A program made the position numbers and the translations under genes. From NCBI RefSeq assembly GCF_000829235.1, contig NZ_AP012549.1, positions 2,250,001 to 2,282,000 of the forward strand: a stretch of DNA of 32,000 nucleotides. Direction: 5' to 3'. Positions 360-30,772 of the stretch are shown in pieces (within the stretch, counting starts at the first letter, position 1; every line of letters begins with the position of its first letter). This DNA is from a cyanobacterium endosymbiont of Epithemia turgida isolate EtSB Lake Yunoko (GTDB lineage Bacteria > Cyanobacteriota > Cyanobacteriia > Cyanobacteriales > Microcystaceae). Under the pieces are notes generated by a model that was not told the origin of the DNA, searched no databases, and was given only the letters and a program-made list of their open reading frames with translations.

Positions 360-740
360 TTTTTGTGCATCATAGTAATGGAATATTCGCTCAAACAAGT
401 GGAGAATATTCTGAGGCGTTAGATAATTGTCATGGAGCTTCCAATTTAGAAACAGCTTTTAATGATTATGGCTACCTTTTCTGCAAAATTAGCATTATTT
501 ATGCTATAAATGGAAAGTGAACTAAAGCTCTATAATACTATAAAAAAATCTGTTAATCTGACTTTATCTATATCCTCAGCTTTGAATAATATTGCTATTA
601 TCTACTATTATCAATGAAAAAAAATAAAGAAGGATAAAACTTTATTTTATAAAGCGGCTGAATATCGTAAATAAGTGATCTATTTAGCTTCGAATAATCA
701 CACTGAAGCTTTAAATTGGTTTAAAATATCATAACGTTCA
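360..740 (+). pseudogene. Possible degraded TPR-repeat protein remnant
   Basis: One frame reads GEYSEALDNCHGASNLETAFNDYGYLF...INGK*TKAL*YYKKIC*SDFIYILSFE*YCYYLLLSMKKNKEG*NFIL. Its periodicity resembles TPR units (G-Y-EAL / KAL-YY-K), but it is interrupted by many stops. The call rests on pattern resemblance only. Confidence 0.3.
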
Positions 741-797
741 TTTCTGAACTTTGTGATATTTTACTTTTTGAGTATTCCCTATTTATGGAAAAAATAA

Positions 798-1094
798 ATG
801 ATTGATCGCCAACAAGTGCAAAAAATTGCTCATTTAGCAAGATTAGATATAACTCCCACAGAGGAAGAAGAATTTGCCCCTCAATTGAACCGTATTTTGG
901 AATATTTTGATCAGTTAAGTAAACTTGATACCGAAAATGTTCCTCCCACTACTAGGGCAATCGAATTAAGTAACATTACCCGCAGTGATAGTTCAACTGT
1001 TTGCAGTGACCGTGAATCCCTTTTAAAACAAGCTCCGGAACAAGAAGGAGAGTTCTTCCGAGTCCCTCAAATTTTGAAAAGTGACGAAGAATAA
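798..1094 (+). CDS. gatC: Asp/Glu-tRNA(Asn/Gln) amidotransferase subunit C
   Basis: 98-aa ORF with an ATG start. [26 protein letters not shown]...[12 protein letters not shown] is the canonical GatC pattern and length. Confidence 0.9.
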
Positions 1095-1140
1095 TTCTTA
1101 TAGAACTTTAAATTTTTAAATTACATGTTATGCTGATAGT

Positions 1141-1237
1141 TAGCTCGGACCCATGCGATTGCAACGCCCAAATCTTGTCAGGGCCGGAAGGTAGCAGCAA
1201 CACGGGATGCTTGCAATAGGCGTGGACTCCGAGCCCC
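1141..1237 (+). ncRNA. ffs: Signal recognition particle RNA (small/4.5S type)
   Basis: Carries the universal helix-8 motif GTCAGGGCCGGAAGGTAGCAGC (E. coli 4.5S: GUCAGGUCCGGAAGGAAGCAGC), preceded by GCAACGC. A closing stem pairs GCTCGGA (1143-1149) with TCCGAGC (1228-1234), and CCATGC pairs with GCGTGG. It forms a GC-rich island in an AT-rich spacer. Confidence 0.85.
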
Positions 1238-2073
1238 TGCTGCGTATGCGGTAACATATTTATTGTCTTCATCAGTAGCAAATTAGTGTCATGAAAATGA
1301 CTTAATTATAGTTGTGGAATATTGCTGTTGTTCAAGCATTAGTAAAAAATTAGCTTCATTTAATAAAATAAAATGTCTTAATATTTGCTCCGCCTCTTCG
1401 CAATAAAGTTAACAACGAGAGTCGTCAAATATTCTAATGTTAATTAGACTCCCCTTTGGGATCTTTTGGAAGTTCTTGGATATTTGATCTAGTCTATTGC
1501 GATGTCTATCTCAGAAAAACTATTACTTAACTTCAGCATAAGTCCTAGTTAAATCGCAATTTTGACTAGATGATTTTATCTAATATCCTTGCTTTTTCTT
1601 TTATATTTAATCTTCTTAATGTTAGGAAATGATATTACTACTATTGTGCTTACTTATGGAAAATTTTTAGGTTATAAGTTAACTTTATGTAGTTCTTAGT
1701 ATATTAGTTATGCTAGCTAAATTTTTAGGCAATTTATTATTCAGTAATTTCCTTTTTTAAATTACTGATTAATTCTAAGTTTACTTAAGATTACTTATTT
1801 AAGTTGTATAAGTTTATCTGAATAAAAATTATTTTTATAATCAGCGTATTTTGAGCTATTAAATAATTATTTAGATAGCTCAACTGTATTTAACCAGAAA
1901 CTAAACAGATTAATGATACTCTTAAATTAACTAGATTAGTGATACCTTTAGAAGGAGAGTATATTTGATGTGAAAATATAACCTAGTTTCCCTTTAGTTG
2001 AGTAATCATTCCTTCAACTGACAGTTTTTTCTCAGAAGTGATCATCTCTTTGATAAGATCTACGATCGACATT

Positions 2074-2082
2074 TGATATAAT
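2074..2082 (+). promoter_or_regulatory. Extended -10 motif TGATATAAT upstream of the ABC-2 operon
   Basis: Perfect TGnTATAAT ending 18 nt before the ATG at 2100. There is no good -35, and the implied leader is very short. This is motif evidence only. Confidence 0.3.
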
Positions 2083-2099
2083 TTTTTTATTTATTAACT

Positions 2100-3071
2100 A
2101 TGATTGAAGTTGAACGTCTGAGTAAAATTTATGGTTCCACAGCCGCCATCAAAGATGTGAACTTCTCTGTGAAAACAGGAGAAATACTTGGTTTTTTGGG
2201 TCCAAATGGTGCAGGAAAAACTACTACCATGAGGATTTTATCAGGATATATTCCCGCTACCAGTGGAACCGCTAAAATTAGTGGCTATGATGTCCATGAA
2301 CAGCCAATGGAAGTGAGACGGCGTATTGGCTATCTTCCTGAAAACCCTCCTTTATACCCTGATCTAACAGTGGAAGGTTTTTTAATGTTTGTGGCAAGAA
2401 TTAAAGGAATAGCAGTCGGAGACTGCCTTTCGCGAGTTAAATGGTCAACGGAACGCTGTCAACTCGAAGATAAACGTAAAGTACTTATTCGTAAACTTTC
2501 TAAAGGCTATAAACAAAGGGTAGGAATCGCTCAAGCGATTATTCACAGCCCTCCAGCTATTATTTTAGACGAGCCTACTGTCGGACTTGATCCAAAACAA
2601 ATTATTGAAGTTCGCCATCTAATCAAAAGTTTAGCCGGAGAACATACTATTATTCTGTCTACTCATATTCTACCTGAAGTTAGTATGACTTGTGACCGCG
2701 TAGCCATTATTAATAAAGGAAAAATAGTTGCCATTGATACCCCAAATAATTTAATGTCTCAATTAACCAAAAGTGGCGGATATGAACTAGAAGTGTCAGG
2801 AGATATTTATAGCATAAAATCTCTATTGGAAGAAATTCAAGGTATTTCTAATATTCTTATTAAAGACAAAGAAAACGCAAAAAATTGTCAATTAAATCAC
2901 TATTTAGTTCATTTAACAGCTGATTTAAATATAGAACCAGGACGAGATATTGCAGCCTTAATTATTAATCGAGGGTTAGCCTTATACGAAATGCGTCGTA
3001 CTCGTCCTACATTAGAGGATGTGTTCTTAAACTTGCTTACCGAAGAATCAGAAGTAGTAAATAACCAATAG
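2100..3071 (+). CDS. ABC-2 type transporter ATP-binding protein (GldA-like)
   Basis: 323 aa. Walker A GPNGAGKTT, signature LSKGYKQR, Walker B IILDEPTVGLD. First gene of a same-strand cluster with a 4-nt gap to the permease. Confidence 0.9.
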   Translation: MIEVERLSKIYGSTAAIKDVNFSVKTGEILGFLGPNGAGKTTTMRILSGYIPATSGTAKISGYDVHEQPMEVRRRIGYLPENPPLYPDLTVEGFLMFVARIKGIAVGDCLSRVKWSTERCQLEDKRKVLIRKLSKGYKQRVGIAQAIIHSPPAIILDEPTVGLDPKQIIEVRHLIKSLAGEHTIILSTHILPEVSMTCDRVAIINKGKIVAIDTPNNLMSQLTKSGGYELEVSGDIYSIKSLLEEIQGISNILIKDKENAKNCQLNHYLVHLTADLNIEPGRDIAALIINRGLALYEMRRTRPTLEDVFLNLLTEESEVVNNQ

Positions 3072-3075
3072 ATAT

Positions 3076-3861
3076 ATGATTTTAGCTAATTTAACTGCCA
3101 TTGTTCGTAAGGAATTTCAAAGTTATTTTTATACTCCTTTTGCCTATATTATTGCAGCATTTTTTTGGTTAATTTCAGGATTCTTTTTTAATTCAATTCT
3201 CGACCAATTGACCCAAGATATTAGCTTTCTCGAACAAAGCGGACAAATTTCTCGGTCTGTTGATGTTGCTAGTCAATTTTTGGAAGCCTTTTCAGGAGTC
3301 ATCATTTCTCTGTTCTTAGTACTTCTTCCCGCACTATCTATGGGATTGTATTCCGAAGAGCGTAAGCGAGGTACTTTAGAACTTTTAGCTACTTCTCCAG
3401 TGAATAATTGGGTGGTTGCTTTTGGTAAACTTTTAGGAGTTATTAGCCTTCTTATCGTATTGATGGTTCCTATCTGGATCTGGGAAATCATTGTCTTCAG
3501 TGCTGCTAATCCCCCAGTTAGTCTACAAATTATTTTACTAAATTACTTGTCTTTATTCCTTATTTCTACAGCTATTTTGTCGCTAGGAATGTTTGTTTCT
3601 TCTTTAACAGATAGTTCTATACTGGCCTATATTCTTACATTTATTTTAATTCTTTTTCTTTGGATTATAGATTTGGTAGCTAATAGTATAATTGAACCAT
3701 TAAGTAGTATTTTATCTCATCTTTCTCTTTTTGATAGTTACAGTAATCTCGTTAAAGGTGTTTTAGAACCCAGTAGTTTAGTTCTATTTGCAAGTTATAT
3801 TCTCATCGGTATTTTTCTAACAGCTCAATCCATAGAAATTTTAAGATTTCAACGAAGTTAG
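3076..3861 (+). CDS. ABC-2 type transporter permease (GldF-like)
   Basis: 261 aa, polytopic and hydrophobic, about 6 TM segments. Starts immediately after the ATPase. Confidence 0.8.
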   Translation: MILANLTAIVRKEFQSYFYTPFAYIIAAFFWLISGFFFNSILDQLTQDISFLEQSGQISRSVDVASQFLEAFSGVIISLFLVLLPALSMGLYSEERKRGTLELLATSPVNNWVVAFGKLLGVISLLIVLMVPIWIWEIIVFSAANPPVSLQIILLNYLSLFLISTAILSLGMFVSSLTDSSILAYILTFILILFLWIIDLVANSIIEPLSSILSHLSLFDSYSNLVKGVLEPSSLVLFASYILIGIFLTAQSIEILRFQRS

Positions 3862-3907
3862 AATTTGCTGTAATCTATATATTTTCAATCAAATAAAACC
3901 GAAAAAA

Positions 3908-5821
3908 ATGTTTAACTACCGTAAAGTCTTGAAATATTTGTTGATTCCAGGACTAGTTATGACTGTAGCAGGTTTAATAGCAGAATCGATGACTAAAAGT
4001 GGGTCAATTCTATATGTTAGTTTAATTGTCACTGGAAGTACTTTTATTATCATTTGGCTATCATATCTATTGATTGCTCGACGAAGTTTCTGGCAGAGAA
4101 GATCAAGTCAAGCAGGGACTAATGCTTTAATATCTACTCTGTCTTTAATAATTATTTTAGGAATAATTAACTTCTTAGCAGCTCGTTATTTAAACCCAAT
4201 TGATTTAACAGAAAATCAACTCTTTACTGTTTCTTTACAAACTCAAAAAATTTTACAAAATATTAATGAACCTGTCAAAGTATGGTTATTTGTAAAAGCT
4301 CCTGATCCTAGAGATAAAAATTTATTAGAAAATTACCGTCGCTATAATGAAAAGTTTAAATTTGAATTTATTGATCCTGACACTAACCTTGGATTAACTA
4401 AACGATTTGATGTTAATTCACTAGGAGATGTATACCTAGAATATAGAAATAAAAGACAGTTAGTACAAACCTTGCTCCAGTTTAATACTCAGGAACCTTT
4501 GTCTGAAATAAAATTAACTAATGCTATTGAAAAAATTCAGCGTAATTATATTCCTACAGTTTATTTTCTTCAGGGACATGGAGAATATTCTTTAGAAGAA
4601 TCTCACGAGGATAGTATTTTTATAGCTGTTAACAGTTTAAAAAATAAAGGACATAATATTAAACCTCTCAATTTAGTAATGTCTCCTAAGATTCCTGATG
4701 ATGCAGATGCAATAATTATTGCAGGTTCTCAACGCAAATTATTCGAACAAGAGGTTAAAGCATTAGAGACTTATTCAGATCAAGGAGGGAATCTTTTTTT
4801 ATTACTTAATCCTAATATTGAAACAGGGTTAGAACCTATCTTAGAGAAGTGGGGAGTCAAACTAGATAATCGTATTGTAGTAGATGGTTCAGGGCGAGGA
4901 AATTTAGTTGGTTTTGGTCCAGTAACTCCTTTGATTAATACCTATGGAAATCACCCCATTACGAAAGAGTTTAATAACGGAATTTCGTTTTATCCATTAG
5001 CACGTCCTATTGATACTATTAAAGTAGAAAACGTAGAAGCTACTTCTTTATTAATCGCTAGTGAACAAATGTGGGCTGAAAGTAATGTAGAATCTGAGAA
5101 GCTTACCTTTGATGAAACTCAAGACATCGCCGGTCCGTTTGATTTAGGAGTTGTTTTGATTCGTCAAATTGGTCCAGATAAAAAGCAGAAATCTCAATTA
5201 TCTCCTTCTTCTAGTCAACTAAATAAAGATTCTCTAATCCCTTCTCATGCAGAAAAATACATGGAGAAAAAACTACCTAAAAAAGGAGGAAAAGAAACTT
5301 CTTTTTCTTTTCCTAAAGAGACAGAAATTACATTCATACCTAATTCTTTCTCTATGATAACTCCATCAAAAAGGCGAGAACTCTCAATGTCTTCTATTTC
5401 TTCAAATAATGTAAAAATTAGATTAGTTCCTAGTATTATTGATGTCCAAGGTAGTGATTTGTATTCTTTTTTAGAAACAATAGAAACTAAAGAAAATAAT
5501 TCATTTTATGAAGAAAATCAGAAAAAAACAACACTTAAAAATCCTGATACAATTGAATCTCGTTTAGTCATAATTGGTAATTCAAGGTTCATTACTAATA
5601 GTTTATTTAATCAACAACTTAATGGTGATGTATTTTTGAATTCAGTTCAATGGTTAGTGAGTAAAAATGATCAACCCTTATCAATCCGTCCTAAAGAAGC
5701 GAAAAATCGTCGGATAAATTTAACTCCAGTACAAGCAAGATTATTGACTTTTCTAACATTAATATTTTTTCCGTTAGGAGGGTTTCTTGCCGGTTTTATG
5801 ACTTGGTTACGTAGACGGTGA
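3908..5821 (+). CDS. GldG-like ABC transporter auxiliary component
   Basis: 637 aa with N- and C-terminal TM anchors (C-terminus LTFLTLIFFPLGGFLAGFMTWLRRR). The large central domain contains the YFLQGHGE and IIAGS motifs typical of the GldG / ABC-type uncharacterised transport family. Its position after the GldA/F-like genes supports the call. Confidence 0.8.
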   Translation: MFNYRKVLKYLLIPGLVMTVAGLIAESMTKSGSILYVSLIVTGSTFIIIWLSYLLIARRSFWQRRSSQAGTNALISTLSLIIILGIINFLAARYLNPIDLTENQLFTVSLQTQKILQNINEPVKVWLFVKAPDPRDKNLLENYRRYNEKFKFEFIDPDTNLGLTKRFDVNSLGDVYLEYRNKRQLVQTLLQFNTQEPLSEIKLTNAIEKIQRNYIPTVYFLQGHGEYSLEESHEDSIFIAVNSLKNKGHNIKPLNLVMSPKIPDDADAIIIAGSQRKLFEQEVKALETYSDQGGNLFLLLNPNIETGLEPILEKWGVKLDNRIVVDGSGRGNLVGFGPVTPLINTYGNHPITKEFNNGISFYPLARPIDTIKVENVEATSLLIASEQMWAESNVESEKLTFDETQDIAGPFDLGVVLIRQIGPDKKQKSQLSPSSSQLNKDSLIPSHAEKYMEKKLPKKGGKETSFSFPKETEITFIPNSFSMITPSKRRELSMSSISSNNVKIRLVPSIIDVQGSDLYSFLETIETKENNSFYEENQKKTTLKNPDTIESRLVIIGNSRFITNSLFNQQLNGDVFLNSVQWLVSKNDQPLSIRPKEAKNRRINLTPVQARLLTFLTLIFFPLGGFLAGFMTWLRRR

Positions 5822-5875
5822 AAGATGGATAAAATATTTAACTCTAAATTAGAATCTAAATAGTTTAGAAAACTT

Positions 5876-6478
5876 ATGAAGTTACAGAAAAAAACTTGGA
5901 GTTTATTGATTGTTGCTGTCTTTTTATGCACTGCTGTATATACTTACGAAATTAAAGTTAAACAACAATCACAAATTAAATCAAACGATAACAAATTGTT
6001 CAATTTTACCGAAGAAGACATCAAAAATATCACCGTTCAAATTAAACAAGATACTTTAAAGTTCCAACGAACTGAAGATAATAAAGGGTATTGGAAAATG
6101 ACTGAACCTAAACAAGGAACTGCTAATGATGCAACTATTTCATTTTTAATTAATCTATTGGTCACTGGAGAAAGTGATCGCCGCTTTACAATTTCCACTA
6201 ATCAACAGAAAGATTATGGTATGAACAAACCATTAGCAACTATAGAAGTAATACTAAATAATGGGAATAAGCATCAGATAGTCTTAGGAAATTCAGATTT
6301 TAATGATAGCTTTTTATATGCTAAAGTAGATACTAATAACCAAGATACAGCAGAGCTAATTATTAGTTTAGTTTCTAAAAACTATCGATATGCAATTGAT
6401 AGAGAAATAGAGGAATGGTTGGAAATAAATGAATCATCAAACAGATCAGAAAATATTGATATAGACTTAAAGAAGTAG
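5876..6478 (+). CDS. DUF4340-like membrane-anchored protein, last gene of the ABC-2 module
   Basis: 200 aa with an N-terminal signal/anchor (KKTWSLLIVAVFLCTAVY). This genomic position is usually occupied by DUF4340 proteins next to gldG-like genes. I could not check similarity, and the ORF may be shorter than its homologues. Confidence 0.5.
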   Translation: MKLQKKTWSLLIVAVFLCTAVYTYEIKVKQQSQIKSNDNKLFNFTEEDIKNITVQIKQDTLKFQRTEDNKGYWKMTEPKQGTANDATISFLINLLVTGESDRRFTISTNQQKDYGMNKPLATIEVILNNGNKHQIVLGNSDFNDSFLYAKVDTNNQDTAELIISLVSKNYRYAIDREIEEWLEINESSNRSENIDIDLKK

Positions 6479-7116
6479 TCAATCTAAATTTAGACCTTAA
6501 GAAACTTAGAAGTTCACTTTCATGATGGACTAAAATAACTTTTTTTTAAAAAAAGAAAAAAACAGATAACGAGTGATTTTAGCTTAATTTAATTCAAAGT
6601 AAAATATAAATTATTTCTTTAGAAAACAGGCGATGTATTTTTAGTTTGAAATTAACTTTTTTATTGAGTAATTAAATATGGATGAAATTTTATATTTGCT
6701 TGATTATTTTTCTGAGTTTAACTTTTAAAAAGTTAACTTATTGACTCAAATCCTATTTAACAAAAATTGAATTTTACTATAAATTAATATCAACTACAAA
6801 ATTAATTAGATAATTTATCTACTATGTTATAAAAAAATATTGAGTCCATACTACGAAAAAAAGATGGTTCAATTAGTCCTCTTAATTCTCTCAAAATATT
6901 CATATTGGCAACTTAAACCGATATAAGCAATTATATAAAAAATAAAAATCTTATCCTGAAATTTGTTTGGCACAATTAGACGAACAAAAATTACATTTGT
7001 TCACAAAGTAGAATCGAATCCTTTACTGGCAATCTCTCTTTGTAAGATGGTTTGTTGGAGGTGAACTTAACCTTTCCTACAATTTCTTGATCGCCATTTA
7101 ACCACCTGGCGACACC

Positions 7117-7170
7117 ACAACACCATGCTAGCTTGTACCCCAATGGGGGTACAAGCTAGCATGGTGTTGT
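7117..7170. repeat. Perfect hairpin, 24-bp arms (7117-7140 / 7147-7170), 6-nt loop, inside the acs pseudogene
   Basis: ACAACACCATGCTAGCTTGTACCC caatgg GGGTACAAGCTAGCATGGTGTTGT. About 50% GC, with a unique sequence. Confidence 0.95.
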
Positions 7171-7700
7171 ATTCGAGGGATTTAGTACCGAAGTGTTAAG
7201 AAATCACCTGAAAGATATTCAAGTAAAAATAGTTGTTGCAACTTACGACAGATTTTGCAAAGATTGAGTAGTTTCTATCAAATCTCAATTTGATTTAGCC
7301 CTGGAACAGGGGACAAATTAAATTGAGAAAATAATCGTTGTTGAACACACAAAAAAACCGTCAATATGGACAATAAAAGGGATTATTGATGGTATGGTTT
7401 TTAAAAAGATATTTCTAGAGACTATCCTGCTGAAGTGATTGATAGTGAAAATAGTCTAATTTATCCTCTACACCAGTGGTAGTCCTAAAAAACCTAAGAG
7501 AGTTGTGCATATCACTACAGAAAGAGTATAGTCTTTACACTCACATAACTACAAAATGGATCTTTTATTTAAAGAATATGGATGTCCATTAGTGTACTGC
7601 GGATGTTGATTAGATCGTTGGGCATAGTTATGTTGTCTATAGTCGCTATTTAATGGCATGGCGCTACCAATCTAATATATGAATGGTTTCCCCGCACTTC

Positions 7701-7744
7701 TAACCCAGGTTGTTTCTACTCTATCCTAGAAACAACCTGGGTTA
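7701..7744. repeat. Perfect hairpin, 18-bp arms (7701-7718 / 7727-7744), 8-nt loop, inside the acs pseudogene
   Basis: TAACCCAGGTTGTTTCTA ctctatcc TAGAAACAACCTGGGTTA. The left arm encodes the Acs motif NPGCF. Confidence 0.95.
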
Positions 7745-9325
7745 ATATATTTTATACTACCTCAACTTCTTCTCCCACTTTAATAAAAACACGAGGAGCG
7801 GTTCTCAACTCACATAATCTGTCTTTCTTACACTTATTAGGAACCTTTGACTATACCATTCATTAACCCCGAGGCTTGGATGTGATCTCAGCGAGTCATT
7901 GGAAGTGCATAAGGTCCCATTTTTGATACATGGTGACGAACGGAAATAAAAATCGTAATGATTACGGTCTTACCCGGAGCTATATCCATCAAACCTAGAT
8001 CAGCAACTCTTCGTTATTGCAGCGGATATAGTAGATAGAGCAAGTGATACTGTTTATAATAACCTTGAAGTTTTAAGAAGACTTATTGGGGTCTTATTCC
8101 ATTTCTTGAGTAGACAGGAAGTGTGTTTATTTTACCGAAGATGATGCGCGTCAAGATAAAGATGGCTATTTTGAGATTATGGAACGAGTTGATGATGTCC
8201 TGAATATCTCAGCCCAGGTACACCGCTTAGGGTTAATGCAGTTAGAATCAGCGTTTGAGTCTAATAGTAAGCTGGCTAAAGCTTTGGTGGTGGGAGTTCC
8301 CCATGGTTTTAAATAAAGGGGAAAACATCTATACTTTTATCACCTTTGAAGATAACCGTAGTGCAAGTGATCAGTTAGCTAAAAAATTTAAATAACACAT
8401 CGTCGCAGATATATTAGTCTATATCTTTAGGTAAAGGTAATGCGTAAATCAATTAATACACTTATAAGAAATAGTATTATGTAGGGTATTCAAATAAAGT
8501 ACATTTAAATAAAATTGTTTTTATAAATAGAAAATACTATCTATTCTTAGTAGAGCTAATTTTAAACTATTGAATAAAGTTATTGGCAGTCATTTTGAAT
8601 AAAAAGATCAGGTTAATATTCCAGTATTGACTTTTAAATACAAGTAATTATAATATAGTAACACGAGTAAGATATGAATTTTATTTTTAAAAAAATAATA
8701 AAACTTTAAAATAATCATCGTTAAACAAAATATACTAATATGTCTACAAAAAATTGAGTCGTATAAAAAATATCAAATAAATATTAAATAATAACATTAA
8801 GAGTATAGTAAAAAGTGAATAAACAAGAAGTAAAAATAATGTTAAAGTATCTAAGCCAAAAAATAAGTATATAAAAATCTTAGCAATTGAAACGGTTAAC
8901 AATTTTATTAATCGTTTTTTTAAAACTTAGAGAGTAGACGTAGAAATTATAGAAACAAAAAATTTTTAATAAAAAATAAAATAGTTAAAAACTCAGAAAA
9001 ATCTATTCTGACTAAGATTAAAGAAGTTAATATAAGTTTTGATAAACTCTATAATAATGTTGTCGAGCAATTAATGCTATAAACTGAAGTAATAACAAAT
9101 AAATTTTATTTAATGAAAAAAGTTTAAGAGTGAAGTTTAAAAAATATTTAAATAAAGAACAAAAAGCTAAAAGTGCTGCTTACAATCTTGCCATAATTAC
9201 AATATTCTATTTTTATAGTAATAAAATTTTTGTCACGATAGAATACAATACGAATAAAAAAATTAGAAGTTATTAGCTATTAATTTTAGGCTATAAAAGT
9301 AAATCTTATTCTAATAAGTTATTAA

Positions 9326-9365
9326 AGAATATTAAAAATTAAGTAAATAATTTTTAATATTCTTA
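9326..9365. repeat. Perfect hairpin, 16-bp arms, 8-nt loop
   Basis: AAGAATATTAAAAATT aagtaaat AATTTTTAATATTCTT. It lies next to the A/T-skew switch of the ORF-free tract. Confidence 0.85.
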
Positions 9366-10240
9366 ACATTTGATGGGGGTTGATACAAGTAATTAGTCAA
9401 GCTCAAAAATACTAAATAAATAAACTATATTAGTTTAATAAATTTAAATAACATAGCTAGTTTTATATTACTTAAATTACTATTGTTTATAGTCACTACT
9501 TCGAGCAATACCTTGTCAAACTACCTTAGTTAAATTAAATTATTTATCGTCTATTTTTATCTATTTTATAAAATTTTATTTAAAATAATTTTTATTATAT
9601 TAGGTTTATTTATAAGTTTTAATTCAATAGAATATATATATCTTTTAGATACCTCTTTATCTTAAATTTTAACCAAATTATTTTTTTAAAATTATTCTCT
9701 TAAATAGATCATAACATAATTAAAACTTTTATTTAATAAATATATTTCTATTGTATTTAGTTGTTATTTATTTATTTTTTTTAAAATTATCGTATTATTT
9801 CAGAATCATTTTATTTCTTAAAGAATTTATATAAAAACCGTTCATCTAAACGTGTTTCACGGTTTAATTACCTAATTTAATTTTTTAAAACTTTTTATAC
9901 TTTTGTATTTAAACATAATATTTTTGCTCTTATTCTCGTTCTGGAGAAAATATTTGGAGTACTGGTCAACTATAATTCTCACTCTTCTAATTTTATCAGA
10001 TGAATTTTCAACAAGACTAGTGTCTAGTGATTACTTTTTTATTCTAAATTAATTTCAGTTTACTTACTTAATATCTAAAATTTATAAACTACTTAAAATA
10101 TATTTATACCATAATATTCATCCCATAATATAAAATATATTGTCCTAGTTTATCAGGGATAAACTCTACTAAACTTACTTGATTTAGAAGTAAGTTAATA
10201 GCTTGCTAAAAACTTATATATAAACCTTGACTACAACTTT

Positions 10241-10486
10241 TTAAGTATGTTTATTAACATTGTTTTTTGGGGATTTTATTCTACTGAATGAAAACCACCA
10301 AACCTCTGTCCCAATTAATACTACTCCCCCCAATGTTACTAATATTTTTAATGGCAAGGGTTGTTCTAGATAATAGAATTGACTATTAGTTTCTCCAGGT
10401 TTTATCTTAGCGTAAGAAATAGAAATATTTCCTAGTATCAAGCTAAGACTTATCATGGCAAAAAAAAATATTTTTATTTTGTTCAT
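10241..10486 (-). CDS. Small signal-peptide/TM protein downstream of the copper ATPase (possibly a truncated remnant)
   Basis: 81 aa with an ATG start. It has an N-terminal signal-like segment and one TM helix ending in the motif EVWWFSFSR. It is on the same strand as the ATPase, 178 nt downstream. No family could be assigned. Confidence 0.35.
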   Translation of the reverse strand: MNKIKIFFFAMISLSLILGNISISYAKIKPGETNSQFYYLEQPLPLKILVTLGGVVLIGTEVWWFSFSRIKSPKNNVNKHT

Positions 10487-10664
10487 CAGGAAACTGCTTG
10501 TTAACAGTAAATAAGTAGAAACCTACAATTTTAAATAAATTTAAGATGACTATTTTACTAACCACTGTTAAAAACATTAATTTTTAACAGTGCTCATATC
10601 ACTTTATCTAAATTCTAACCGCTAAGGTAAAAACAAAAAACTATAGTAATCTTAAGTTTATTAG

Positions 10665-12935
10665 TTATTTGGGATTAAAATTTCGTAATCTTAAAGCATT
10701 CGTCACCACAGAAAAAGAACTAAAAGCCATTGCTGTTCCTGCAATCATAGGATTCAATAGCAACCCGCAAAAAGGATATAAAATTCCGGCGGCGATAGGA
10801 ATACCAAGACTATTATAAATATATGCAAAAAAGAGATTCTCTTTAATGTTTCTTATAGTGGCATGACTCAATTGAATTGCCGTGACAATGCCCCGTAAAT
10901 CCCCAGAAACTAATGTTAAATCACTGGCAGCCATTGCTACATCTGTCCCCGTCCCGAGCGCTATTCCCACATCAGCTTGTGCTAAAGCAGGTGCATCATT
11001 AATCCCATCTCCAACCATTGCTACAATTTTTTTTTCTCGTTTACAGCTATTTCTTTCTTGTTGAATTTGTTCAATGATACTAGCTTTTTGATCAGGAAGT
11101 ACTTGGGAAAAAACTCTTTGAATACCTACTTCAGAAGCTATAGCTTCCGCAGTTTTTTGATTGTCTCCTGTTAACATTACCACTTCCAACCCCATTCTCT
11201 GCAAGGATTTAACGGCCTCTAATGAAGAAGGCTTAGTTGCGTCTGCAATACCAATTAAACCCTCAAGTTGTCCATCTACAGCTATTAGAGCAGTTGTTTT
11301 GGCTTCACTTTCCCATTGTTGACGGGTGGCATCTAAAAATTGAGTATTAATATTCAACATATCCATCCATCTCTGTGTACCAATTTGTACTAGTTTCCCT
11401 AAAACTTCCCCCTGAACTCCCATTCCGACAACAGATTCAAAATTTATAACTTCAGGTAACGGTATCTTGACTCGTTGAGATTTAGCGTAATTAACCACTG
11501 CTTCGGCTAAAGGATGTTCAGATTTTTTTTCCAGAGCAGCCCCAAGTTTTAAGAGTTCTAGTTCATTACTATTAGCCACACCATTAACAGCAATATAGTT
11601 AGTAACAATAGGTTTTCCTTGAGTGATAGTTCCTGTTTTATCAAGAACAACAGTGTTTAATCTATGAGCTAGTTCTAAGCTATTTCCCCCCTTAATTAAA
11701 ATACCATTTTCTGCTCCTTTTCCTGTTCCAACCATAATGGATGTAGGTGTTGCTAAACCCAGGGCACAGGGACAGGCAATAATTAAAACTCCCACTGTTG
11801 TAATCATAGCTAGGGTGACATTTCCCATTGTATTAAACCAAATTACAAATGTCGCAATGGCAACGGCAATCACTGCTGGGACAAACCATCTAGTTACTTG
11901 ATCAGCTAATTGTTGAATTTGAGCTTTACTTCCTTGAGCATCTTGGACCAACTTAACAATCTGTGCCAACATTGCATCTTTTCCTACTTTTGTCGCTTTA
12001 AGTTTAAAACTTCCTGTCTTATTAATGGTTGCTCCAATTACCTCATCTCCTGCTTTTTTCTTAACAGGGATAGGTTCTCCTGTTATCATTGATTCATCAA
12101 TGGCAGATCCTCCCTCAACCACTTCGCCATCGACAGGGATTTTCTCTCCAGGACGTACTAAAATAACATCGTTCACAACTACTTCTTGAATAGGAATATC
12201 TATTTCTTGTTCATGGCGAATTACTCTGGCTGTTTTGGCTTGTAATCCCATTAATTTCCCTATCGCCTCTGAGGTTTTCGCCTTAGCTCTATGTTCTAAC
12301 ATTTTTCCTAATAAAACTAAGGTAATAACTACAGAAACGGTTTCGTAATAAACTTCTGTAACAATACCATGAGATTCAAAAATCTGTGGGAATATAGTTG
12401 TAAATAAAGAGTATAGATAAGCGACTCCAGTACCTAAAGAAACTAGAGTATCCATATTAGCCGAGTGAAATTTAAAGGACTTCCAAGCTCCGGCAAAAAA
12501 GTCTTTACCTACCCAAAAAATAACCGGAGTTGTCAAGAAAAATTGCACCCAAAAATTAGGTAAAAAGGAAGGAATCCAATCTATTTCTAATCCTATCATC
12601 ATCGGAAGACTCCCGATAACTAATAAGATACTAATAATAGAACCGACAAACAATTTATATCTCAATTTTTGTTGTTGGGCTACTTTTCTTGTTTTTTCTA
12701 AGTCTTCTTCGTCCGTTCTTTCTAAAACAGGATAAGCATTATAACCCGCGTCTTTTACTGCTTGTTGAATAACTGATAAATTGGTCTTTGTCGGATCATA
12801 GGTTACAGTTGCTTGAGAGATAGCAAAATTAACGTTGCCTTGAGTGACTCCCTCCACTTCTTGAATGACTTTTTCAATCGCAGAAGCACAACCAGCACAA
12901 CTCATTCCTTGTAGTTTTAAATGATAAGTTTTCAT
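10665..12935 (-). CDS. Copper-translocating P1B-type ATPase (CtaA/PacS/CopA-like)
   Basis: N-terminal HMA domain with [13 protein letters not shown] motif [13 protein letters not shown], phosphorylation site DKTGTIT, SEHPLA, and hinge [11 protein letters not shown]. The track ORF begins at a TTG (12962). The first ATG (12935, [16 protein letters not shown]) is the more likely start. Confidence 0.9.
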
Positions 12936-12999
12936 TCGAATTATAGCTTTGAGATTTTTCAAAAAAGTATACTGTCTAATATTTGACGATTTACTTAAA

Positions 13000-13400
13000 A
13001 TTAAAGAAAAAATTTGAGTAAATTAGTCTAAGGATAGAGATGAGCTATCCAATTAGTTTGATATTGCTCTAATTCAGGTTTTAAAAAGATCATTTGCTTA
13101 ATGTTCATTTATAGGTTTTTTATTTTACTATCTAGCAAACTTTGTGCTAAATGACAAAGTGTTTTTTCGAACTTTATCCACTGAAAATTGGCTTGATCTT
13201 TTTGAGTGTAAAGCTAAGAAATTAGGCTTTTCTACAAATTTCATCTATTGACTCATCTCTAAAATCTAATAAAAATAGTTATTTTCATCTCTTTTTACGG
13301 GTTCAAGAAAGCTTAAGTCGCTGTAATAGCGTAAATTTTCTGTAGATAAACCTGTTTGTTGGGTCAATTCACTAATTTTGAGATATGATACTGTATTCAT
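13000..13400 (-). pseudogene. MerR-family transcriptional regulator pseudogene
   Basis: From the ATG at 13400 the sequence reads MNTVSYLKISELTQQTGLSTENLRYYSDLSFLEPVKRDENNYFY*. This is a typical MerR N-terminal HTH (xIGELAxxTGxSxxTLRYYExxGLLxP). The same frame continues ILEMSQ*MKFVEKPNFLALHSKRSSQFSV..., resembling the MerR dimerisation helix but with further stops. The 3-prime boundary is approximate. Confidence 0.65.
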
Positions 13401-13476
13401 AACGGTAGGTATAACGAATATTTTTCTACTAATTGGTGTAGATTTTTTAGTTAATTTAAAATTAATAAGCTAATAG

Positions 13477-15309
13477 TTATTTTTTGTTCTTCATTATTTG
13501 TAGCTTGTATAAAGCATTATATAATCCTCCTTTTTTTAATAATTCTTGATGATTTCCAGATTCCAGTAACTCACCTTGTTTAAATACAAAAATGCGATCT
13601 ACATTCCGAATAGTTGAAAGTCGATGAGCGATGATAACGGCGGTTTTCTGATTTAATAAATTGTCTAATGCATCTTGAATTAATACCTCTGTTTGTAAGT
13701 CCAAACTAGAAGTAGCTTCATCCAAAACCAAAATGCGAGGATTACGAATAGCTACTCTAGCAAATGCTAATAATTGTTTTTGTCCTTCAGACAAATTTGT
13801 TCCTCTTTCCCGAACTTTAGTTTTATAACCTTGAGGGAGTTCCTCAATAAATTGCTCAATATTAGTTATTCTAGCCGCTTTTTGTACCTGTTCAAAACAA
13901 TAATTTTCTCCTAAAGTAATGTTACGTATAACGTCTCCTGCAAAAAGAAAATTTTCTTGTAAGATGACACCAATATATCGCCGTAGTTCGGTTTTAGAAA
14001 TTTCTCGAATATCCACGCCATCAATAAGAATTCTTCCTTGAATAGGATCATAAAGACGACATAATAAACGAATAATAGAACTTTTTCCAGCTCCAGTAGG
14101 ACCTACAAATGCAACCTTTTCTCCTGCATGAATGGTAAAATCTAAATTCTTGAGAACATACTTATCTTTGTTATAACCAAACCAAACATTTTCAAAACAA
14201 ATTTTACCACTTATATTCTGCTGATAGAAACTTGATAAAGAGTATACTTTATCTTCAGGTTCAAGAATTTTAATCTTTTCATTCATTAACTCACTAATAC
14301 GTTCTATCGCTGTAAATCCAGCTTGAAACATGGTTAATTTATCAGCTAGTTGACGCAAAGGATTAAACAAGCGTTGTGCGTAAAGAATAAATGCAGATAA
14401 AGTACCAAAAGTAATTGCTTCATCGACAATAAAAACTCCTCCTAACCATAAAACTCCTGCGATTGCTACTAAACTAATCCATTCTAAGGTTGCAGAAACA
14501 GCCGAGTCATGGAAAATTGTTTCGTCAACTTTTTTGCGATATCGTTCATTGGTAGAACGAAATAATTCTGAATTAAAAAGTTCTCGGCGAAACAATTGAA
14601 CAACGTTAATTCCAGCTATATTTTCCTGTAATATAGAATTGAGTGTGGAAAGTTCTTCTCTTGCTTTGTAATTTGCTTTTCGATATTGACTTTGAAAATA
14701 GATAATTAATACAGTAACAGGAATCATCATTAAAACCAGCATTAATGCTAATTCTACTTGTACTGTAATCATGATGATGATCATTGCGAAAATATAAATA
14801 CCATCACTTAAAACGCTAATTGCACCGCTAGAAAATACATCTCCTAATATCTCAACATCACTGGTTAATCGTGTCACTAAACTTCCTACTGGAGTACGAT
14901 TAAAGAAGCTCATTCCTAATAAAGAAATATGAGTAAATAAATTTTTACGTATGTCTGCGATAATTATTTGACCTATTTTTTGAATAAAATATCCTTGAAA
15001 AGAAGTGCAACAAACACGGATAATAACTGTGATTAATAATAATATACTCAGCCATGTTATGCCTTGTTCTATAGAAAGATTTCTTAAAAACTTCCATGTA
15101 GACTCCTGACGTAAAAGAGAGATAGCCTGTCCAAGAATTAAAGGTTGTATCGCCCCAGCAGTAGCTGATGGTATAAGTAACCCCATCACCAGTGACAATA
15201 AATGGATATGGCGATGTAAATAAGGAACTAGTCTAAGGATAAGTTTTCTATTACTCTCATTGAGATAGTTCAAGTTTTTGTGTTGACGTATAGGTGAAAA
15301 AATAGCCAT
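13477..15309 (-). CDS. ABC exporter, fused permease/ATPase (MsbA/MdlB-like)
   Basis: Six-TM exporter domain followed by an NBD: Walker A GPTGAGKSS, signature LSEGQKQ, Walker B ILVLDEATSSLD. The track ORF starts at a TTG (15423) with a low-complexity 38-aa extension. The ATG at 15309 (MAIFSPIRQHK...) is more plausible. Confidence 0.85.
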   Translation of the reverse strand: MAIFSPIRQHKNLNYLNESNRKLILRLVPYLHRHIHLLSLVMGLLIPSATAGAIQPLILGQAISLLRQESTWKFLRNLSIEQGITWLSILLLITVIIRVCCTSFQGYFIQKIGQIIIADIRKNLFTHISLLGMSFFNRTPVGSLVTRLTSDVEILGDVFSSGAISVLSDGIYIFAMIIIMITVQVELALMLVLMMIPVTVLIIYFQSQYRKANYKAREELSTLNSILQENIAGINVVQLFRRELFNSELFRSTNERYRKKVDETIFHDSAVSATLEWISLVAIAGVLWLGGVFIVDEAITFGTLSAFILYAQRLFNPLRQLADKLTMFQAGFTAIERISELMNEKIKILEPEDKVYSLSSFYQQNISGKICFENVWFGYNKDKYVLKNLDFTIHAGEKVAFVGPTGAGKSSIIRLLCRLYDPIQGRILIDGVDIREISKTELRRYIGVILQENFLFAGDVIRNITLGENYCFEQVQKAARITNIEQFIEELPQGYKTKVRERGTNLSEGQKQLLAFARVAIRNPRILVLDEATSSLDLQTEVLIQDALDNLLNQKTAVIIAHRLSTIRNVDRIFVFKQGELLESGNHQELLKKGGLYNALYKLQIMKNKK

Positions 15310-15912
15310 AGAGTTAATAGTTAAGAGGTTATGATTAAGGTAAGTTAAATAAAATACCACATAGTTCCAGTTAGTATTTTTTTTCTCAAATAGGGGGTAT
15401 TCATAGAAAAATAGATATGTCAATTAGTAAAATAACATTTCATGAGTAATAAATCTACTAACTAATTAGTAATTACTGATTATTGATTTTAATAAAAGTA
15501 CATTTTTTTATATATTAACTTTTTTTTGTTTTAAATAATTGACTCTTTTCTACTAAATAAATTAAGTTTAATTCAGTTAATATAATTTATATCATAACAA
15601 TTTTGACAATATATTAAGTTGTATTATAAATCTCATAAAAAATAAGATGATCATCCAGAATAAACATAGAAAACCTACAAGATAACTCAAGATACATTAG
15701 ATGTTCTAGTTTGGAGAAACTCCATACACTAATATAGTTAACTTCCTAAGAATATAATTTATTTATAAATAAATATCCACTGCCATGGAGTAAGTAATAA
15801 ATTTTTAATAAAAACCATTGTTCCGTAAAGCTTAAGAGCAATTAATGATGTGCTAACAATAGCAAATATTTCTAAATATATTGAACGTAACCCTATTTTA
15901 TTTTTAAAATTT

Positions 15913-15969
15913 ATAATAGACAATATAATTGCTCTTGAAATTTTCAAGAGCAATTATATTGTCTATTAT
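15913..15969. repeat. Perfect palindrome, 28-bp arms (15913-15940 / 15942-15969)
   Basis: ATAATAGACAATATAATTGCTCTTGAAA t TTTCAAGAGCAATTATATTGTCTATTAT. It generates the two mirror-image spurious ORFs 15759..15953(-) and 15850..16038(+). Confidence 0.95.
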
Positions 15970-16200
15970 TTTTTATCTTTTGATAGTAAAAATGTGATTA
16001 ATATGCCAAAGCAGAGGATTATAGAGTCTCTAGAATAACTAAAAACCTGTGTATTTTTTTTAAAAAAAATATAAATAAATAAACTACAAACAAGCTTAAC
16101 TATTACAATTAGCACAATATTATTAATTGGAATTAAATGTAAGATAGTGAAAATAAAGGTATTACAATGTACAGGAAAAATTTATAGATAAGCTAGAATT

Positions 16201-16237
16201 AGTTGATTATCTTTTTTTAAAAAAAAGATAATCAACT
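16201..16237. repeat. Perfect palindrome, 18-bp arms, 1-nt spacer
   Basis: AGTTGATTATCTTTTTTT a AAAAAAAGATAATCAACT. Confidence 0.9.
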
Positions 16238-16299
16238 AAAATTTATTTTTATAAATTTAAATTATCCAACTAAAATGTAACTATTGACTACCACTAAAA

Positions 16300-16329
16300 C
16301 ATTGATAAAAAATGTATTTTTTATCAATG
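16300..16329. repeat. Perfect hairpin, 14-bp arms, 2-nt spacer
   Basis: CATTGATAAAAAAT gt ATTTTTTATCAATG. Confidence 0.85.
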
Positions 16330-16786
16330 TTAACCATTTTATCTTGCTTTACTGTAACCAAAGAATGTGTTTCACATCTGCCATAGATTTAATTTTTTAG
16401 TCAACTCTATATTATTAGTTATTCTATCAAAAAATAGAATCCTAGAGTAAAGTACAAAGTTAAAGCTTTTTACTTTGTACAAGATCACTAACTCTGGCAA
16501 ACACTATATTTGATCATGAAACTTTAGGGGAAGAACTTGATGAATTAAAGGACTATACACTTTAATTTTTATGGTACTTATTATTTCCTAGAGGGTATCA
16601 GTCATAATTTTTACTTTTCTTCACAATTTTTCTCAAAAAACACTCAACTTTTCTGAAGAATCAAGTACATGCCAATTAATTTTTTTAATTGGGACAAACA
16701 AAAATCAGGGTTAACCCTATAAGAGCAAGGATGACATCCTAACCACATCAAAAAATTAGTTTTGGGATCAGATAATCGCAACTATT

Positions 16787-16828
16787 ATAAAAGTATCGTT
16801 TGATAACTTTGTCAAACGATACTTTTAT
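16787..16828. repeat. Perfect hairpin, 17-bp arms, 8-nt loop
   Basis: ATAAAAGTATCGTTTGA taactttg TCAAACGATACTTTTAT. Confidence 0.9.
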
Positions 16829-17128
16829 GGCAATTAATAAAGATAAGTTAATTGCGGTTAAATTAACATATCTTTATTGATTGCCAACTCAAAGAGTTGT
16901 ATTCAAAATTATAAAAAATCGTGAAATCTGTCTAAAAATATTAAAATTTTTAGAAATTTTAAGTATTAAAAACCCTTTTAAAAATGAAATTGTTCTATTT
17001 TATGTTTTATTTAAAACTGTAGTTTACGTACATCCTAGAACAATTCAAGAGTGTGTTGCGTTATGCTAATACACCCTTGAATATCGATATTGTTATGTTA
17101 ACTTCTTCGAACAGACAATTAACTTTAT

Positions 17129-21394: not shown

Positions 21395-21468
21395 TCGGAG
21401 CGGCGGGATTTGAACCCACGACCCCCACTACCCCAAAGTGGTGCGCTACCAAGCTGCGCTACGCCCCG
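21395..21468 (-). tRNA. tRNA-Pro (anticodon GGG)
   Basis: The reverse complement folds as a 74-nt cloverleaf: CGGGGCG TA GCGC AGCTTGGTA GCGC A CCACT TTGGGGT AGTGG GGGTC GTGGG TTCAAAT CCCGC CGCTCCG A. CCA is not encoded. Confidence 0.9.
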
Positions 21469-27097: not shown

Positions 27098-27170
27098 CGG
27101 GTGTGACAGGACTCGAACCTGTAACCTACGACTTAGAAGGTCGGTGCTCTATCCATTGAGCTACACACCC
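27098..27170 (-). tRNA. tRNA-Arg (anticodon UCU)
   Basis: The reverse complement folds as a 73-nt cloverleaf: GGGTGTG TA GCTC AATGGATA GAGC A CCGAC CTTCTAA GTCGT AGGTT ACAGG TTCGAGT CCTGT CACACCC G. There is one C-U mismatch at the top of the anticodon stem. Confidence 0.9.
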
Positions 27171-27298: not shown

Positions 27299-27976
27299 TT
27301 AAAAGTCAAATTCATTCAGCCTTTTCTGTAACATTTGAGGAAATTTGGCATAATATTTCTGATTGAGAGGAGATGGATGGGGTAAAGGAAGTAAAGTTAC
27401 TTGTCGTCGGTGTTGCATACCCAAAGTATCAGTCGCGCGGAGAGTTACAGGTAATTTATTTTCATAGCGATCGCTCCGCTGGAAAAATTCATTAACTTCC
27501 CCTTTATCTCCATAGGGAATAAACCACTTAAACGCCTCGGTTCCTAGGGTAATAATCTGATTTCCTTGCCAGTGAATAACTAATAATGTTTCTATAAAGG
27601 GACGGAAACGATTTTTAACTTCAGTCATATAAGCTTTATTGCCAGGGGGTTTATAGGGGACAGTATTAGTAAGGAGAACTCGAGCACAGACGCTTTGCAA
27701 CTCCTGTTGAGTTTTCGCTTGTTGATGATGCATCGCCGAGTAAAACCCTCTACGAACTAAGGTGCCTGCGGCACCAATTAAAGGTTCTCCCATGTGGACT
27801 TCATCTCGTCCAAGATCTCGTCCCAAAAAGCAGATCTTACTTTTGAGGTTTCCTGCATATAAAATAGGTTGAGTAGGATCTTTATTAGCCGCCTTATAAA
27901 CTGTTGTATCAATGGGAAACAGTTTTCGTTTAGCTTCTAGATGAATTTGAACGATCAAGGTTTCAATATCTGGCAT
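27299..27976 (-). CDS. Uracil-DNA glycosylase superfamily protein (family 4/5-like)
   Basis: 225 aa. Motif-A region FLGRDLGRDEVHMGEPLIGAAGTLV (compare family-4 fvGEaPGxxEdxxGxPFvGxAGxlL) and motif B LPHPSPLN. It contains the only perfect HIP1 site (GCGATCGC, 27467-27474) in the window. Confidence 0.75.
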   Translation of the reverse strand: MPDIETLIVQIHLEAKRKLFPIDTTVYKAANKDPTQPILYAGNLKSKICFLGRDLGRDEVHMGEPLIGAAGTLVRRGFYSAMHHQQAKTQQELQSVCARVLLTNTVPYKPPGNKAYMTEVKNRFRPFIETLLVIHWQGNQIITLGTEAFKWFIPYGDKGEVNEFFQRSDRYENKLPVTLRATDTLGMQHRRQVTLLPLPHPSPLNQKYYAKFPQMLQKRLNEFDF

Positions 27977-28519: not shown

Positions 28520-28580
28520 TCAGTATTCTCAGTTGAGTATTTTATACTGTCAGTATAAAATACTCAACTGAGAATACTGA
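28520..28580. repeat. Perfect palindrome, 30-bp arms, 1-nt spacer
   Basis: TCAGTATTCTCAGTTGAGTATTTTATACTG t CAGTATAAAATACTCAACTGAGAATACTGA. Confidence 0.95.
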
Positions 28581-28612: not shown

Positions 28613-28646
28613 GCTAAATCTATTCTATTTATAGAATAGATTTAGC
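28613..28646. repeat. Perfect hairpin, 15-bp arms, 4-nt loop
   Basis: GCTAAATCTATTCTA ttta TAGAATAGATTTAGC. Confidence 0.9.
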
Positions 28647-30730: not shown

Positions 30731-30772
30731 TTTTTTATGATGATTAAATTTAAATTTAATCATCATAAAAAA
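30731..30772. repeat. Perfect palindrome, 20-bp arms, 2-nt spacer
   Basis: TTTTTTATGATGATTAAATT ta AATTTAATCATCATAAAAAA. Confidence 0.9.

Follow-up and report, generated by a model that had tools for sequence, protein, structure and literature searches.

Work on mutational hotspots at imperfect palindromes (quasipalindromes) is said to include the 1982 model of Ripley and studies by Rosche and Sinden, by Yoshiyama and Maki and by the Lovett laboratory. Quasipalindrome correction is a classical mutational hotspot of bacteria (Ripley 1982 and later work, cited in PMC7202029). Homogenisation of the arms of a short inverted repeat and inversion of its spacer have been documented, including both in one event, and spacer inversion is regarded as the signature of an inter-strand (sister-template) switch and not of a purely intramolecular fold-back (PMC8604942). 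Perfect short inverted repeats are described as enriched in bacterial genomes generally (PMC5941160). The present locus is a perfect hairpin at positions 7701–7744 of a 32,000-nucleotide stretch (hereafter the window) from the genome of the cyanobacterial endosymbiont of Epithemia turgida (contig NZ_AP012549.1, positions 2,250,001 to 2,282,000), where it lies in a pseudogene of acs, the gene for acetate-CoA ligase. We put at roughly 85% the probability that this hairpin arose neutrally, by replication template switching at a quasipalindrome that was already there, in a gene that was dispensable or became so through the event. The mechanism is well known, and the hairpin is a new, unusually well-documented case of it.

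The hairpin and its host gene

On the plus strand, the hairpin consists of a left arm at 7701–7718 (TAACCCAGGTTGTTTCTA; 18 nt), a loop at 7719–7726 (CTCTATCC; 8 nt) and a right arm at 7727–7744 (TAGAAACAACCTGGGTTA; 18 nt), which occupies the (I)-E-K-Y-G-V-N codons. The arms are complementary at 18 of 18 positions, and the hairpin that had been proposed at this place from the letters alone (the sequence-only reading) is thus real. Folded as single-stranded DNA it reaches −18 kcal/mol (z = −10.4), a fold equalled by none of 200 shuffles, and perfect hairpins with arms of at least 16 nt, of which the window has 13, are absent from 100 second-order Markov simulations. The hairpin is not a chance feature. 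Within the window no further copy of the arm exists with up to 3 mismatches, only the two arms matching each other; the search for multiple copies of hairpin sequences covered the 32 kb of the window and the sister loci described below. A metagenome scan with the hairpin core gave 0 matches, and one with a pseudogene-specific 23-mer gave 14, of which 9 were local matches of 28 nt only and 5 yielded nothing reportable beyond the pattern itself. A scan against Rfam found no RNA family at any hairpin of the window.

The region at about 6856–8413 (~1.6 kb, plus strand) is identified as an acs pseudogene on the basis of tblastn with intact Acs proteins (P0001 and P0018) and of its translations. The intact proteins match it as fragments in three frames with many stops and frameshifts, and an internal deletion of ~62 codons, adjoining position 7130, is common to three lineages. 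Translation straight through the hairpin, in the frame starting at 6502, gives ...YEWFPRTSNPGCF-YSILETTW-VNIFYTTSTSS, just as the sequence-only reading had it.

A GldG-like gene upstream (3908–5821) led to syntenic loci in the spheroid bodies (diazoplasts) of the diatoms Epithemia (E.) and Rhopalodia (R.), its protein being 88% identical to that of the E. clementina endosymbiont, 86% to R. gibba, 84% to R. gibberula and 70% to uoEpiScrs1, with 51–63% in free-living Crocosphaera. The locus of the E. adnata endosymbiont, found via the DUF4340 gene, has 97.2% DNA identity over window positions 581–15930. The R. gibba, R. gibberula and E. adnata endosymbionts each keep a remnant of acs in syntenic position, downstream of DUF4340, and the pseudogene of the window is ~25% diverged from the R. 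gibberula copy. The remnant is almost wholly deleted in the endosymbionts of E. clementina, R. musculus, uoEpiScrs1 and R. sterrenbergii and in a metagenomic relative. Free-living Crocosphaera loci that are syntenic for the upstream genes have no acs at that place. A published list of core genes that every Rhopalodiacean endosymbiont lacks includes acs (PMC12903740 supplement).

Comparison with intact acs genes

The search for Acs homologues returned partial proteins only, none from a named Crocosphaera or Rippkaea, and the codon alignment was made with three intact cyanobacterial acs genes of metagenomic or metagenome-assembled genome (MAG) origin. Ten cyanobacterial Acs proteins all conform to N[PL]GCF-WD[VI]IEK[YH][GR]-V[NT][IV]FYTAP, with 8 residues between the blocks, which bears out the spacing of 8 codons that the sequence-only reading had given for cyanobacterial Acs. 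At the nucleotide level, intact genes read AAC CCN GGN TGT TTY TGG GAY GTN ATC GAA AAA TAY GGN GTN AAT, and the window reads AAC CCA GGT TGT TTC TAC TCT ATC CTA GAA ACA ACC TGG GTT AAT. From AAC (Asn) to AAT (Asn) there are equally 15 codons in the window and in each of the three intact genes, and therefore no net DNA was inserted, as the sequence-only reading had concluded.

The changes are of unequal extent across the hairpin. The left arm, reading (TC)T AAC CCA GGT TGT TTC TA, encodes S-N-P-G-C-F followed by two bases of the former Trp codon; it is the conserved NPGCF block in its native codons, as had been claimed, and differs from the intact genes at 3–5 positions that are limited to third codon positions and to the change of TGG to TA. 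The differences amount to 6–7 of 8 in the loop and to 6–9 of 18 in the right arm. The non-native bases of the right arm are confined to 7733–7738 on the plus strand, the minimal rewritten block, where CAACCT stands in place of native AATAYG and each base complements AGGTTG of the left arm. The arm sequence was thus changed in place, with the left arm as donor and the right arm as recipient. According to the sequence-only reading, about 18 nt of native codons had been overwritten by the reverse complement of their neighbours; the block-like change of the right arm stands, while only about 6 nt of it needed rewriting.

The remainder of the right arm was natively complementary already, the outer GGGTTA (Gly-Val-Asn codons) to TAACCC and the inner TAGAAA to TTTCT, and conserved residues account for the outer TAAC/GTTA and the inner TTTC/GAAA. 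Placed in the register of the hairpin, the three intact genes already form 7, 8 and 10 of the 18 pairs, and L016, one of the three, adopts this very register on folding (−7.4 kcal/mol). As judged from these genes, the ancestor was already an imperfect palindrome, a possibility that the sequence-only reading had left for checking.

The same alignment bears on insertion by a mobile element. In Rickettsia, palindromic elements insert in frame into genes, and the present hairpin also lies in a gene. Nevertheless, a small palindromic mobile element inserted into acs, such as a miniature inverted-repeat transposable element (MITE), a repetitive extragenic palindrome (REP) or an element resembling the Rickettsia palindromic elements (RPE), can be given hardly any weight. 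It is excluded because the locus has the length of intact acs with no extra bases, the left arm is acs coding sequence and the hairpin is single-copy, its arm being unique in the window. Neither arm is foreign to acs, and the 16 perfect hairpins of the window are unrelated to each other in sequence. On these grounds the earlier rejection of a mobile-element insertion holds. Moreover, transposases were not found in these endosymbiont genomes (preprint, bioRxiv 10.64898/2026.03.19.712447).

The site in sister endosymbionts

The R. gibberula endosymbiont reads AAC CCT GGT TGT TTC TAG GAT GTA GTA GAA ACA ACC at this site, followed by a deletion of 4 nt. It has the converted ACAACC core too, with perfect arms of 11 nt (GGTTGTTTCTA/TAGAAACAACC), and its loop GGATGTAG consists of the native Trp-Asp-Val codons in native orientation. 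It would thus carry an intermediate state of the hairpin. Between the window and this genome, 17 of 18 positions are identical in the left arm, 2 of 8 in the loop and 13 of 18 in the right arm. Of the 8 positions in the window's loop, 6 agree with the reverse complement of the R. gibberula loop, as against 2 with its forward sequence (P of at least 6/8, about 0.008), and for this reason the loop is taken as inverted; the match, with its two residual mismatches, points to a spacer inversion of the native Trp-Asp-Val codons. In the E. adnata endosymbiont both the 18-nt arms and the inverted loop recur, apart from a single C-to-T mismatch that arose later in the left arm, and the R. gibba endosymbiont has lost about 165–180 nt covering the site. 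Judging from these states, the event is old and the site has been struck more than once. The sequence-only reading had proposed intramolecular switching, of which the template switch is supported; the loop inversion points instead to an inter-strand switch or to a second event.

The most parsimonious history that these genomes suggest would have four steps. The gene would already have been dying, as the ~62-codon deletion common to three lineages suggests; the right arm would then have been homogenised before the lineages of R. gibberula and of the window split; the spacer would have been inverted before the split between the window and E. adnata lineages; and the site would have decayed or been deleted independently in other lineages, as in R. 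gibba. Alternatively, a single event could have copied the left arm and the loop together, and the hotspot could have been hit in parallel in R. gibberula.

The sister genomes also bear on the possibility of an artefact. Whole-genome amplification can generate inverted chimeras, and a hairpin could in principle come from a chimeric inverted junction of assembly or amplification, or from a chance pile-up of point substitutions. Either origin is extremely improbable. Chance is ruled out by the shuffles and simulations described above, and the occurrence of the hairpin in independently made assemblies excludes an artefact; that of the E. adnata endosymbiont comes from a different sequencing run, and the genome of the R. 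gibberula endosymbiont has the intermediate form.

Another explanation is that the hairpin was selected as a functional element, namely as a de novo intrinsic terminator against read-through from the upstream DUF4340 gene into defunct DNA, as a protein-binding site or as an RNA element. Both hairpins of acs (the second is described below) are flagged as terminator-like on the plus strand, five such sites occur in 6500–9000 against 0.8 expected, and the arms are still perfect despite the ~25% divergence of the pseudogene from the R. gibberula copy. On the other hand, the T-rich tail behind the terminator-like flag is supplied by the native N-I-F-Y codons, only 7 of 18 pairs in the stem are G-C, and the hairpin lies ~1.2 kb downstream of the nearest intact gene, within a pseudogene. 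The R. gibba endosymbiont has lost the site, the pseudogene as a whole is missing from the endosymbionts of E. clementina, R. musculus and uoEpiScrs1 and from the metagenomic relative L033, and the mismatch in the E. adnata endosymbiont is uncompensated. No Rfam family covers the site, and hairpins that are unrelated in sequence occur throughout the non-coding DNA, not just at gene ends. A selected terminator is thus unlikely as far as the sequences tell, and a selected element of any of these kinds has a very small chance.

A second hairpin in the acs pseudogene

Another perfect hairpin of the acs pseudogene lies at 7117–7170 on the plus strand, over the MLACAR...HSVV codons, with 25-nt arms and the loop AATG. 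It folds with −32 kcal/mol (z = −13) and directly adjoins the junction of the ~62-codon deletion. Compared with intact acs, it has 5 additional nt in the window and 3 in the R. gibberula endosymbiont. The converted right arm (ACAAGCTA.CAT), which complements the M-L-A-C codons, also occurs in the R. gibberula endosymbiont, where the arms are 14 nt long, and the R. gibba endosymbiont keeps a remnant of it, the left arm and loop being lost. In the E. adnata endosymbiont the arms are 23 nt long, without CC. The hairpin has since grown longer in the window lineage. One base pair has changed in a compensatory manner, being C-G in the window and T-A in the R. gibberula endosymbiont.

Deletions in sister genomes begin or end at or near the acs hairpins, at 13240–13300 and 13780–13800 of the R. 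gibba locus (L001) and at 6367 of L033. The latter, the metagenomic relative, has lost the equivalent of window positions 7042–12861. Between the acs remnant and a gene for an 81-aa protein, ~1.7 kb (8500–10240) is devoid of long open reading frames (ORFs) at a G+C content of 19–27% and aligns with the sister genomes at 68–72% only; it presumably consists of further decayed genes.

Other hairpins of the window

Perfect hairpins with arms of at least 12 nt and loops of up to 20 nt number 16 in the window, against 0.26–0.35 expected, and their sequences are all different. Open frames of at least 120 aa cover 45% of the window, yet they contain none of the 16 (P about 6e-5). Hairpins up to 17.8 kb were compared with the sister genomes, and the seven beyond were left out: a search for sister loci of 18–32 kb by means of the uracil-DNA glycosylase gene gave a close match (92%) on a 1.3-kb contig, the rest reaching at most 78%. 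This intact family-4 enzyme is encoded at 27299–27976 on the minus strand and shares 70–78% identity with its counterparts in free-living Chroococcales; at 28754–29431 lies another ORF that is equally long (225 aa).

As at 7701, one arm is kept in the sisters and the other has been overwritten at 201, 10563, 15913 and 16787, the unconverted arm being present in one to three sister genomes. The donor is the left arm at 7701, 15913 and 16787 and the right arm at 201 and 10563, and the polarity is thus mixed. Templated indels of 3–15 nt are found at several other hairpins, and arms have been extended from an initial homology of 5–6 nt. The hairpin at 201–247 (17-nt arms) arose in the window lineage by overwriting of the left arm; three sisters keep the right arm (15–17 of 17 positions) and have non-complementary TCACTGATAT (in one, TTGCTCATAT) for GTTAGCT. 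The perfect hairpin at 9325–9364 (17-nt arms) has the loop AGTAAA, the exact reverse complement (6/6) of the loop TTTACT in the E. adnata endosymbiont, the two genomes being 2.2% apart; read from this comparison, the spacer inversion appears unambiguous. At the orthologous site, the R. gibba endosymbiont has a hairpin of its own with unrelated sequence.

The perfect palindrome at 15913–15969 has 28-nt arms, of which the left is kept in the E. clementina endosymbiont and the right has been overwritten. The E. adnata endosymbiont (about 20050 of L032) lacks exactly the 67 nt (15903–15969) that hold this palindrome, and the excised piece is flanked by short similar T-rich runs (TATTTTAT / CTATTATTTTTT). 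This loss resembles a palindrome-stimulated deletion and suggests a route from the birth of a hairpin to the loss of DNA. At 16199–16239 lies a perfect palindrome with 20-nt arms, the right arm being ancestral and the left absent from two sisters; the alignment around it is too messy for reconstruction of events. In the perfect hairpin at 16298–16331 (16-nt arms), two pairs differ in a compensatory manner from those of the E. adnata endosymbiont, with AACATTG../..CAATGTT in the window and AATTTTG../..CAAAATT in the sister. Two adjacent hairpins occupy 16787–16886, one with perfect 17-nt arms and the other (16828–16886) with 26-nt arms that are 92% complementary, and in both the right arm has been overwritten relative to the sister genomes.

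Several further observations concern the setting of these hairpins. Five hairpins lie in ~1 kb of gene-free DNA (15913–16886) between a 648-aa ORF, annotated as an ABC transporter in the sister loci, and a FUR-like gene, and identity to the E. adnata endosymbiont falls there from 97% to 83%. Just downstream of the FUR-like gene, another hairpin (about 17040–17120 of the window; 20890–20930 of L010 and 21114–21153 of L003) is common to the E. clementina and R. gibberula endosymbionts, between which an A-T pair has been exchanged for C-G in a compensatory manner; unlike the lineage-specific hairpins, it is probably a real terminator. The hairpin at 722–763 is 89% complementary in the window and has perfect 17-nt arms in the R. 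gibba endosymbiont (6408–6445 of L001), being either shared at a different stage of decay or re-homogenised. The longest palindromes of the window lie in AT-rich non-coding DNA at 28520–28580 (30-nt arms, 1-nt loop), 28613–28646 (16-nt arms) and 30730–30773 (44 nt, loopless). Matches above the Rfam gathering score are the SRP RNA at 1142–1238 (plus strand) and tRNA genes at 21395–21468 and 27098–27170 (both minus strand).

Frequency of the process in endosymbiont genomes

Endosymbiont loci contain 1.1–5.0 perfect hairpins per 10 kb, against 0–1.8 in free-living relatives; the window has 5, and the eight other endosymbiont loci, one of which is near-identical to another, have 1.1–4.1. Before normalisation to non-ORF DNA, the raw excess over free-living relatives is ~10-fold, and much of it arises because 43% of the endosymbiont loci lies outside long open frames, compared with 11% in the free-living ones. 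The window differs from the E. adnata endosymbiont by at least five complex hairpin events, beside 351 substitutions in about 16 kb. In a text search of papers on endosymbiont genomes, hairpins, palindromes and inverted repeats went unmentioned.

It may be that diazoplast genomes in general undergo short-range template switching at an unusually high rate, and that palindromes which are born, extended, flipped in the loop and excised account for a major part of their neutral sequence change and of the DNA they lose as they shrink early on toward an organelle-like state. This wider claim is tentative and, on balance, doubtful. RNase HII has a role in Okazaki-fragment processing. The genes recQ, rnhB (RNase HII) and phrB are absent from all six Rhopalodiacean endosymbionts analysed and from UCYN-A, and the same endosymbionts keep recJ, mutS, mutL, recA and ruvABC and the rest of a set of 27 repair genes (PMC12903740 supplement). 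Template switching rises in yeast without Rad27 (PMC8604942). By analogy, loss of RecQ, a helicase that resolves DNA structures, and of RNase HII could be a cause of frequent template switching, which is speculative.

Proposed mechanism

The codons for S-N-P-G-C-F and E-K-Y-G-V-N would have been partly complementary by chance, with TAACC/GGTTA outside and TTTC/GAAA inside. A nascent strand copying one arm may then have annealed via this microhomology to the complement of the other arm, copied it and switched back. The mismatched centre of the right arm, AATAYG, would thereby have become CAACCT, the exact complement of the left arm, with the length unchanged. An inter-strand switch running through the spacer would invert the 8-nt loop, either in the same event or, more parsimoniously, later, in the common lineage of the window and the E. 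adnata endosymbiont. At that time acs would already have been dispensable, or would have been made so by the event. The process presumably recurs in non-coding and pseudogene DNA, where it would create, extend and re-homogenise hairpins and flip their loops, the palindromes being later deleted, and purifying selection would exclude such hairpins from working genes.

The sequences show templated, polar rewriting in place that recurs and spares the long ORFs, together with loop inversion. That replication template switching was the enzymatic route, and not another form of templated repair, is what we infer from the sequences, as is the order of events. A templated origin by another route would be an extruded hairpin or cruciform fixed by mismatch or excision repair, or recombination between the arms that flips the loop. 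Recombination between perfect arms can flip-flop a loop and is the classical alternative in such cases. Both arms may have changed at 7701, the left by the G-to-A change and the right by its block, and mutS, mutL, recA and ruvABC are retained in the endosymbionts (PMC12903740 supplement). However, mismatch repair of a 6-nt internal bubble is not expected to copy the whole block one way, and the templated indels of 3–15 nt and the extension from 5–6 nt of homology fit copying by a polymerase better. Another templated route thus keeps a small chance.

Several points weigh against an origin by replication template switching at a quasipalindrome. Nothing ties the changes directly to replication, and the G-to-A change of the left arm (TGG to TA.) is unaccounted for by a single conversion of the right arm. 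The ancestral third codon positions are reconstructed, and the pairing at 7–10 of 18 positions, coming from distant intact genes, is approximate. The inverted loop at 7719–7726 keeps mismatches at 2 of 8 positions, and histories of one and of two events are indistinguishable, as ACAACC in R. gibberula could be a parallel hit. The consensus scan labels both acs hairpins terminator-like. Finally, per kb of non-ORF DNA, hairpins with arms of at least 12 nt amount to 0.70 in the endosymbionts and 0.41 in the free-living relatives (1.7-fold), and those with arms of at least 14 nt to 0.54 and 0.12 (4.6-fold), all of these being small counts. A strong endosymbiont-specific enrichment of hairpins is not claimed, as the excess is modest after this normalisation.

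Significance and comparison with known systems

The locus at 7701 is a multi-genome example of a perfect stem-loop written into coding sequence in one or two steps with no added DNA, the series including one sister genome in which it is apparently still intermediate and another in which it is decaying. Annotators of reduced genomes should not take such hairpins for mobile elements or terminators. Clustered differences left by a template switch, if counted as independent substitutions, inflate divergence and mislead alignments. In these young nitrogen-fixing endosymbionts, about half of the DNA is non-coding and there are no transposases; if template switching and palindrome-stimulated deletion were frequent, they would provide a concrete mechanism for the scrambling and loss of pseudogenes toward a genome of organelle size. 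What deserves further work is how intense the process seems to be in these young endosymbiont genomes and how it connects with deletion.

Plastid genomes contain short perfect inverted repeats in AT-rich non-coding DNA, the loops of which flip between close relatives; these inversions are usually reported as phylogenetic noise, and the birth of the stem from coding sequence is not usually traced. The present case resembles them in that the genome is endosymbiont-derived and that loops flip between close relatives. Rickettsia palindromic elements, REPs and MITEs are alike in that a palindrome may lie in frame inside a gene; they are multi-copy and add DNA, whereas the hairpin at 7701 is single-copy, adds none and is made of the gene's own codons. 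Template switches that create RNA hairpins and miRNAs (Loytynoja and Goldman; Walker 2021, PMC7954356; Monttinen and Loytynoja 2022–23, PMC8794818, PMC10710096) follow a four-point model: the reverse complement of a neighbouring stretch takes the place of the original sequence, and perfect stems arise de novo, as at 7701. Those studies concern eukaryotic genomes and functional RNAs, unlike the hairpin at 7701, for which no function is indicated.

The homogenisation of short inverted repeats and the inversion of spacers in yeast and proteobacteria (Abraham and Hazkani-Covo 2021, PMC8604942; PMC5941160) have both outcomes found here. The described cases include REG2, with both outcomes together, recurrence at the same site and parallel events (PMC8604942). 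The yeast cases are rare and lie inside working genes, with arms of up to 16 bp and spacers of a few bp, whereas in the endosymbionts the arms reach 25–30 bp and the hairpins are denser and confined to neutral DNA. Quasipalindrome template-switch mutation at the thyA and lacZ hotspots of E. coli (PMC7202029) is alike in that an imperfect repeat is perfected in a single step by clustered base changes, all templated by the other arm, with microhomology at the switch points and sometimes small indels, the length being preserved at 7701. The known cases of this mutation are events in laboratory reporters, whereas the hairpin at 7701 is a fixed change in a pseudogene that can be followed through sister genomes.

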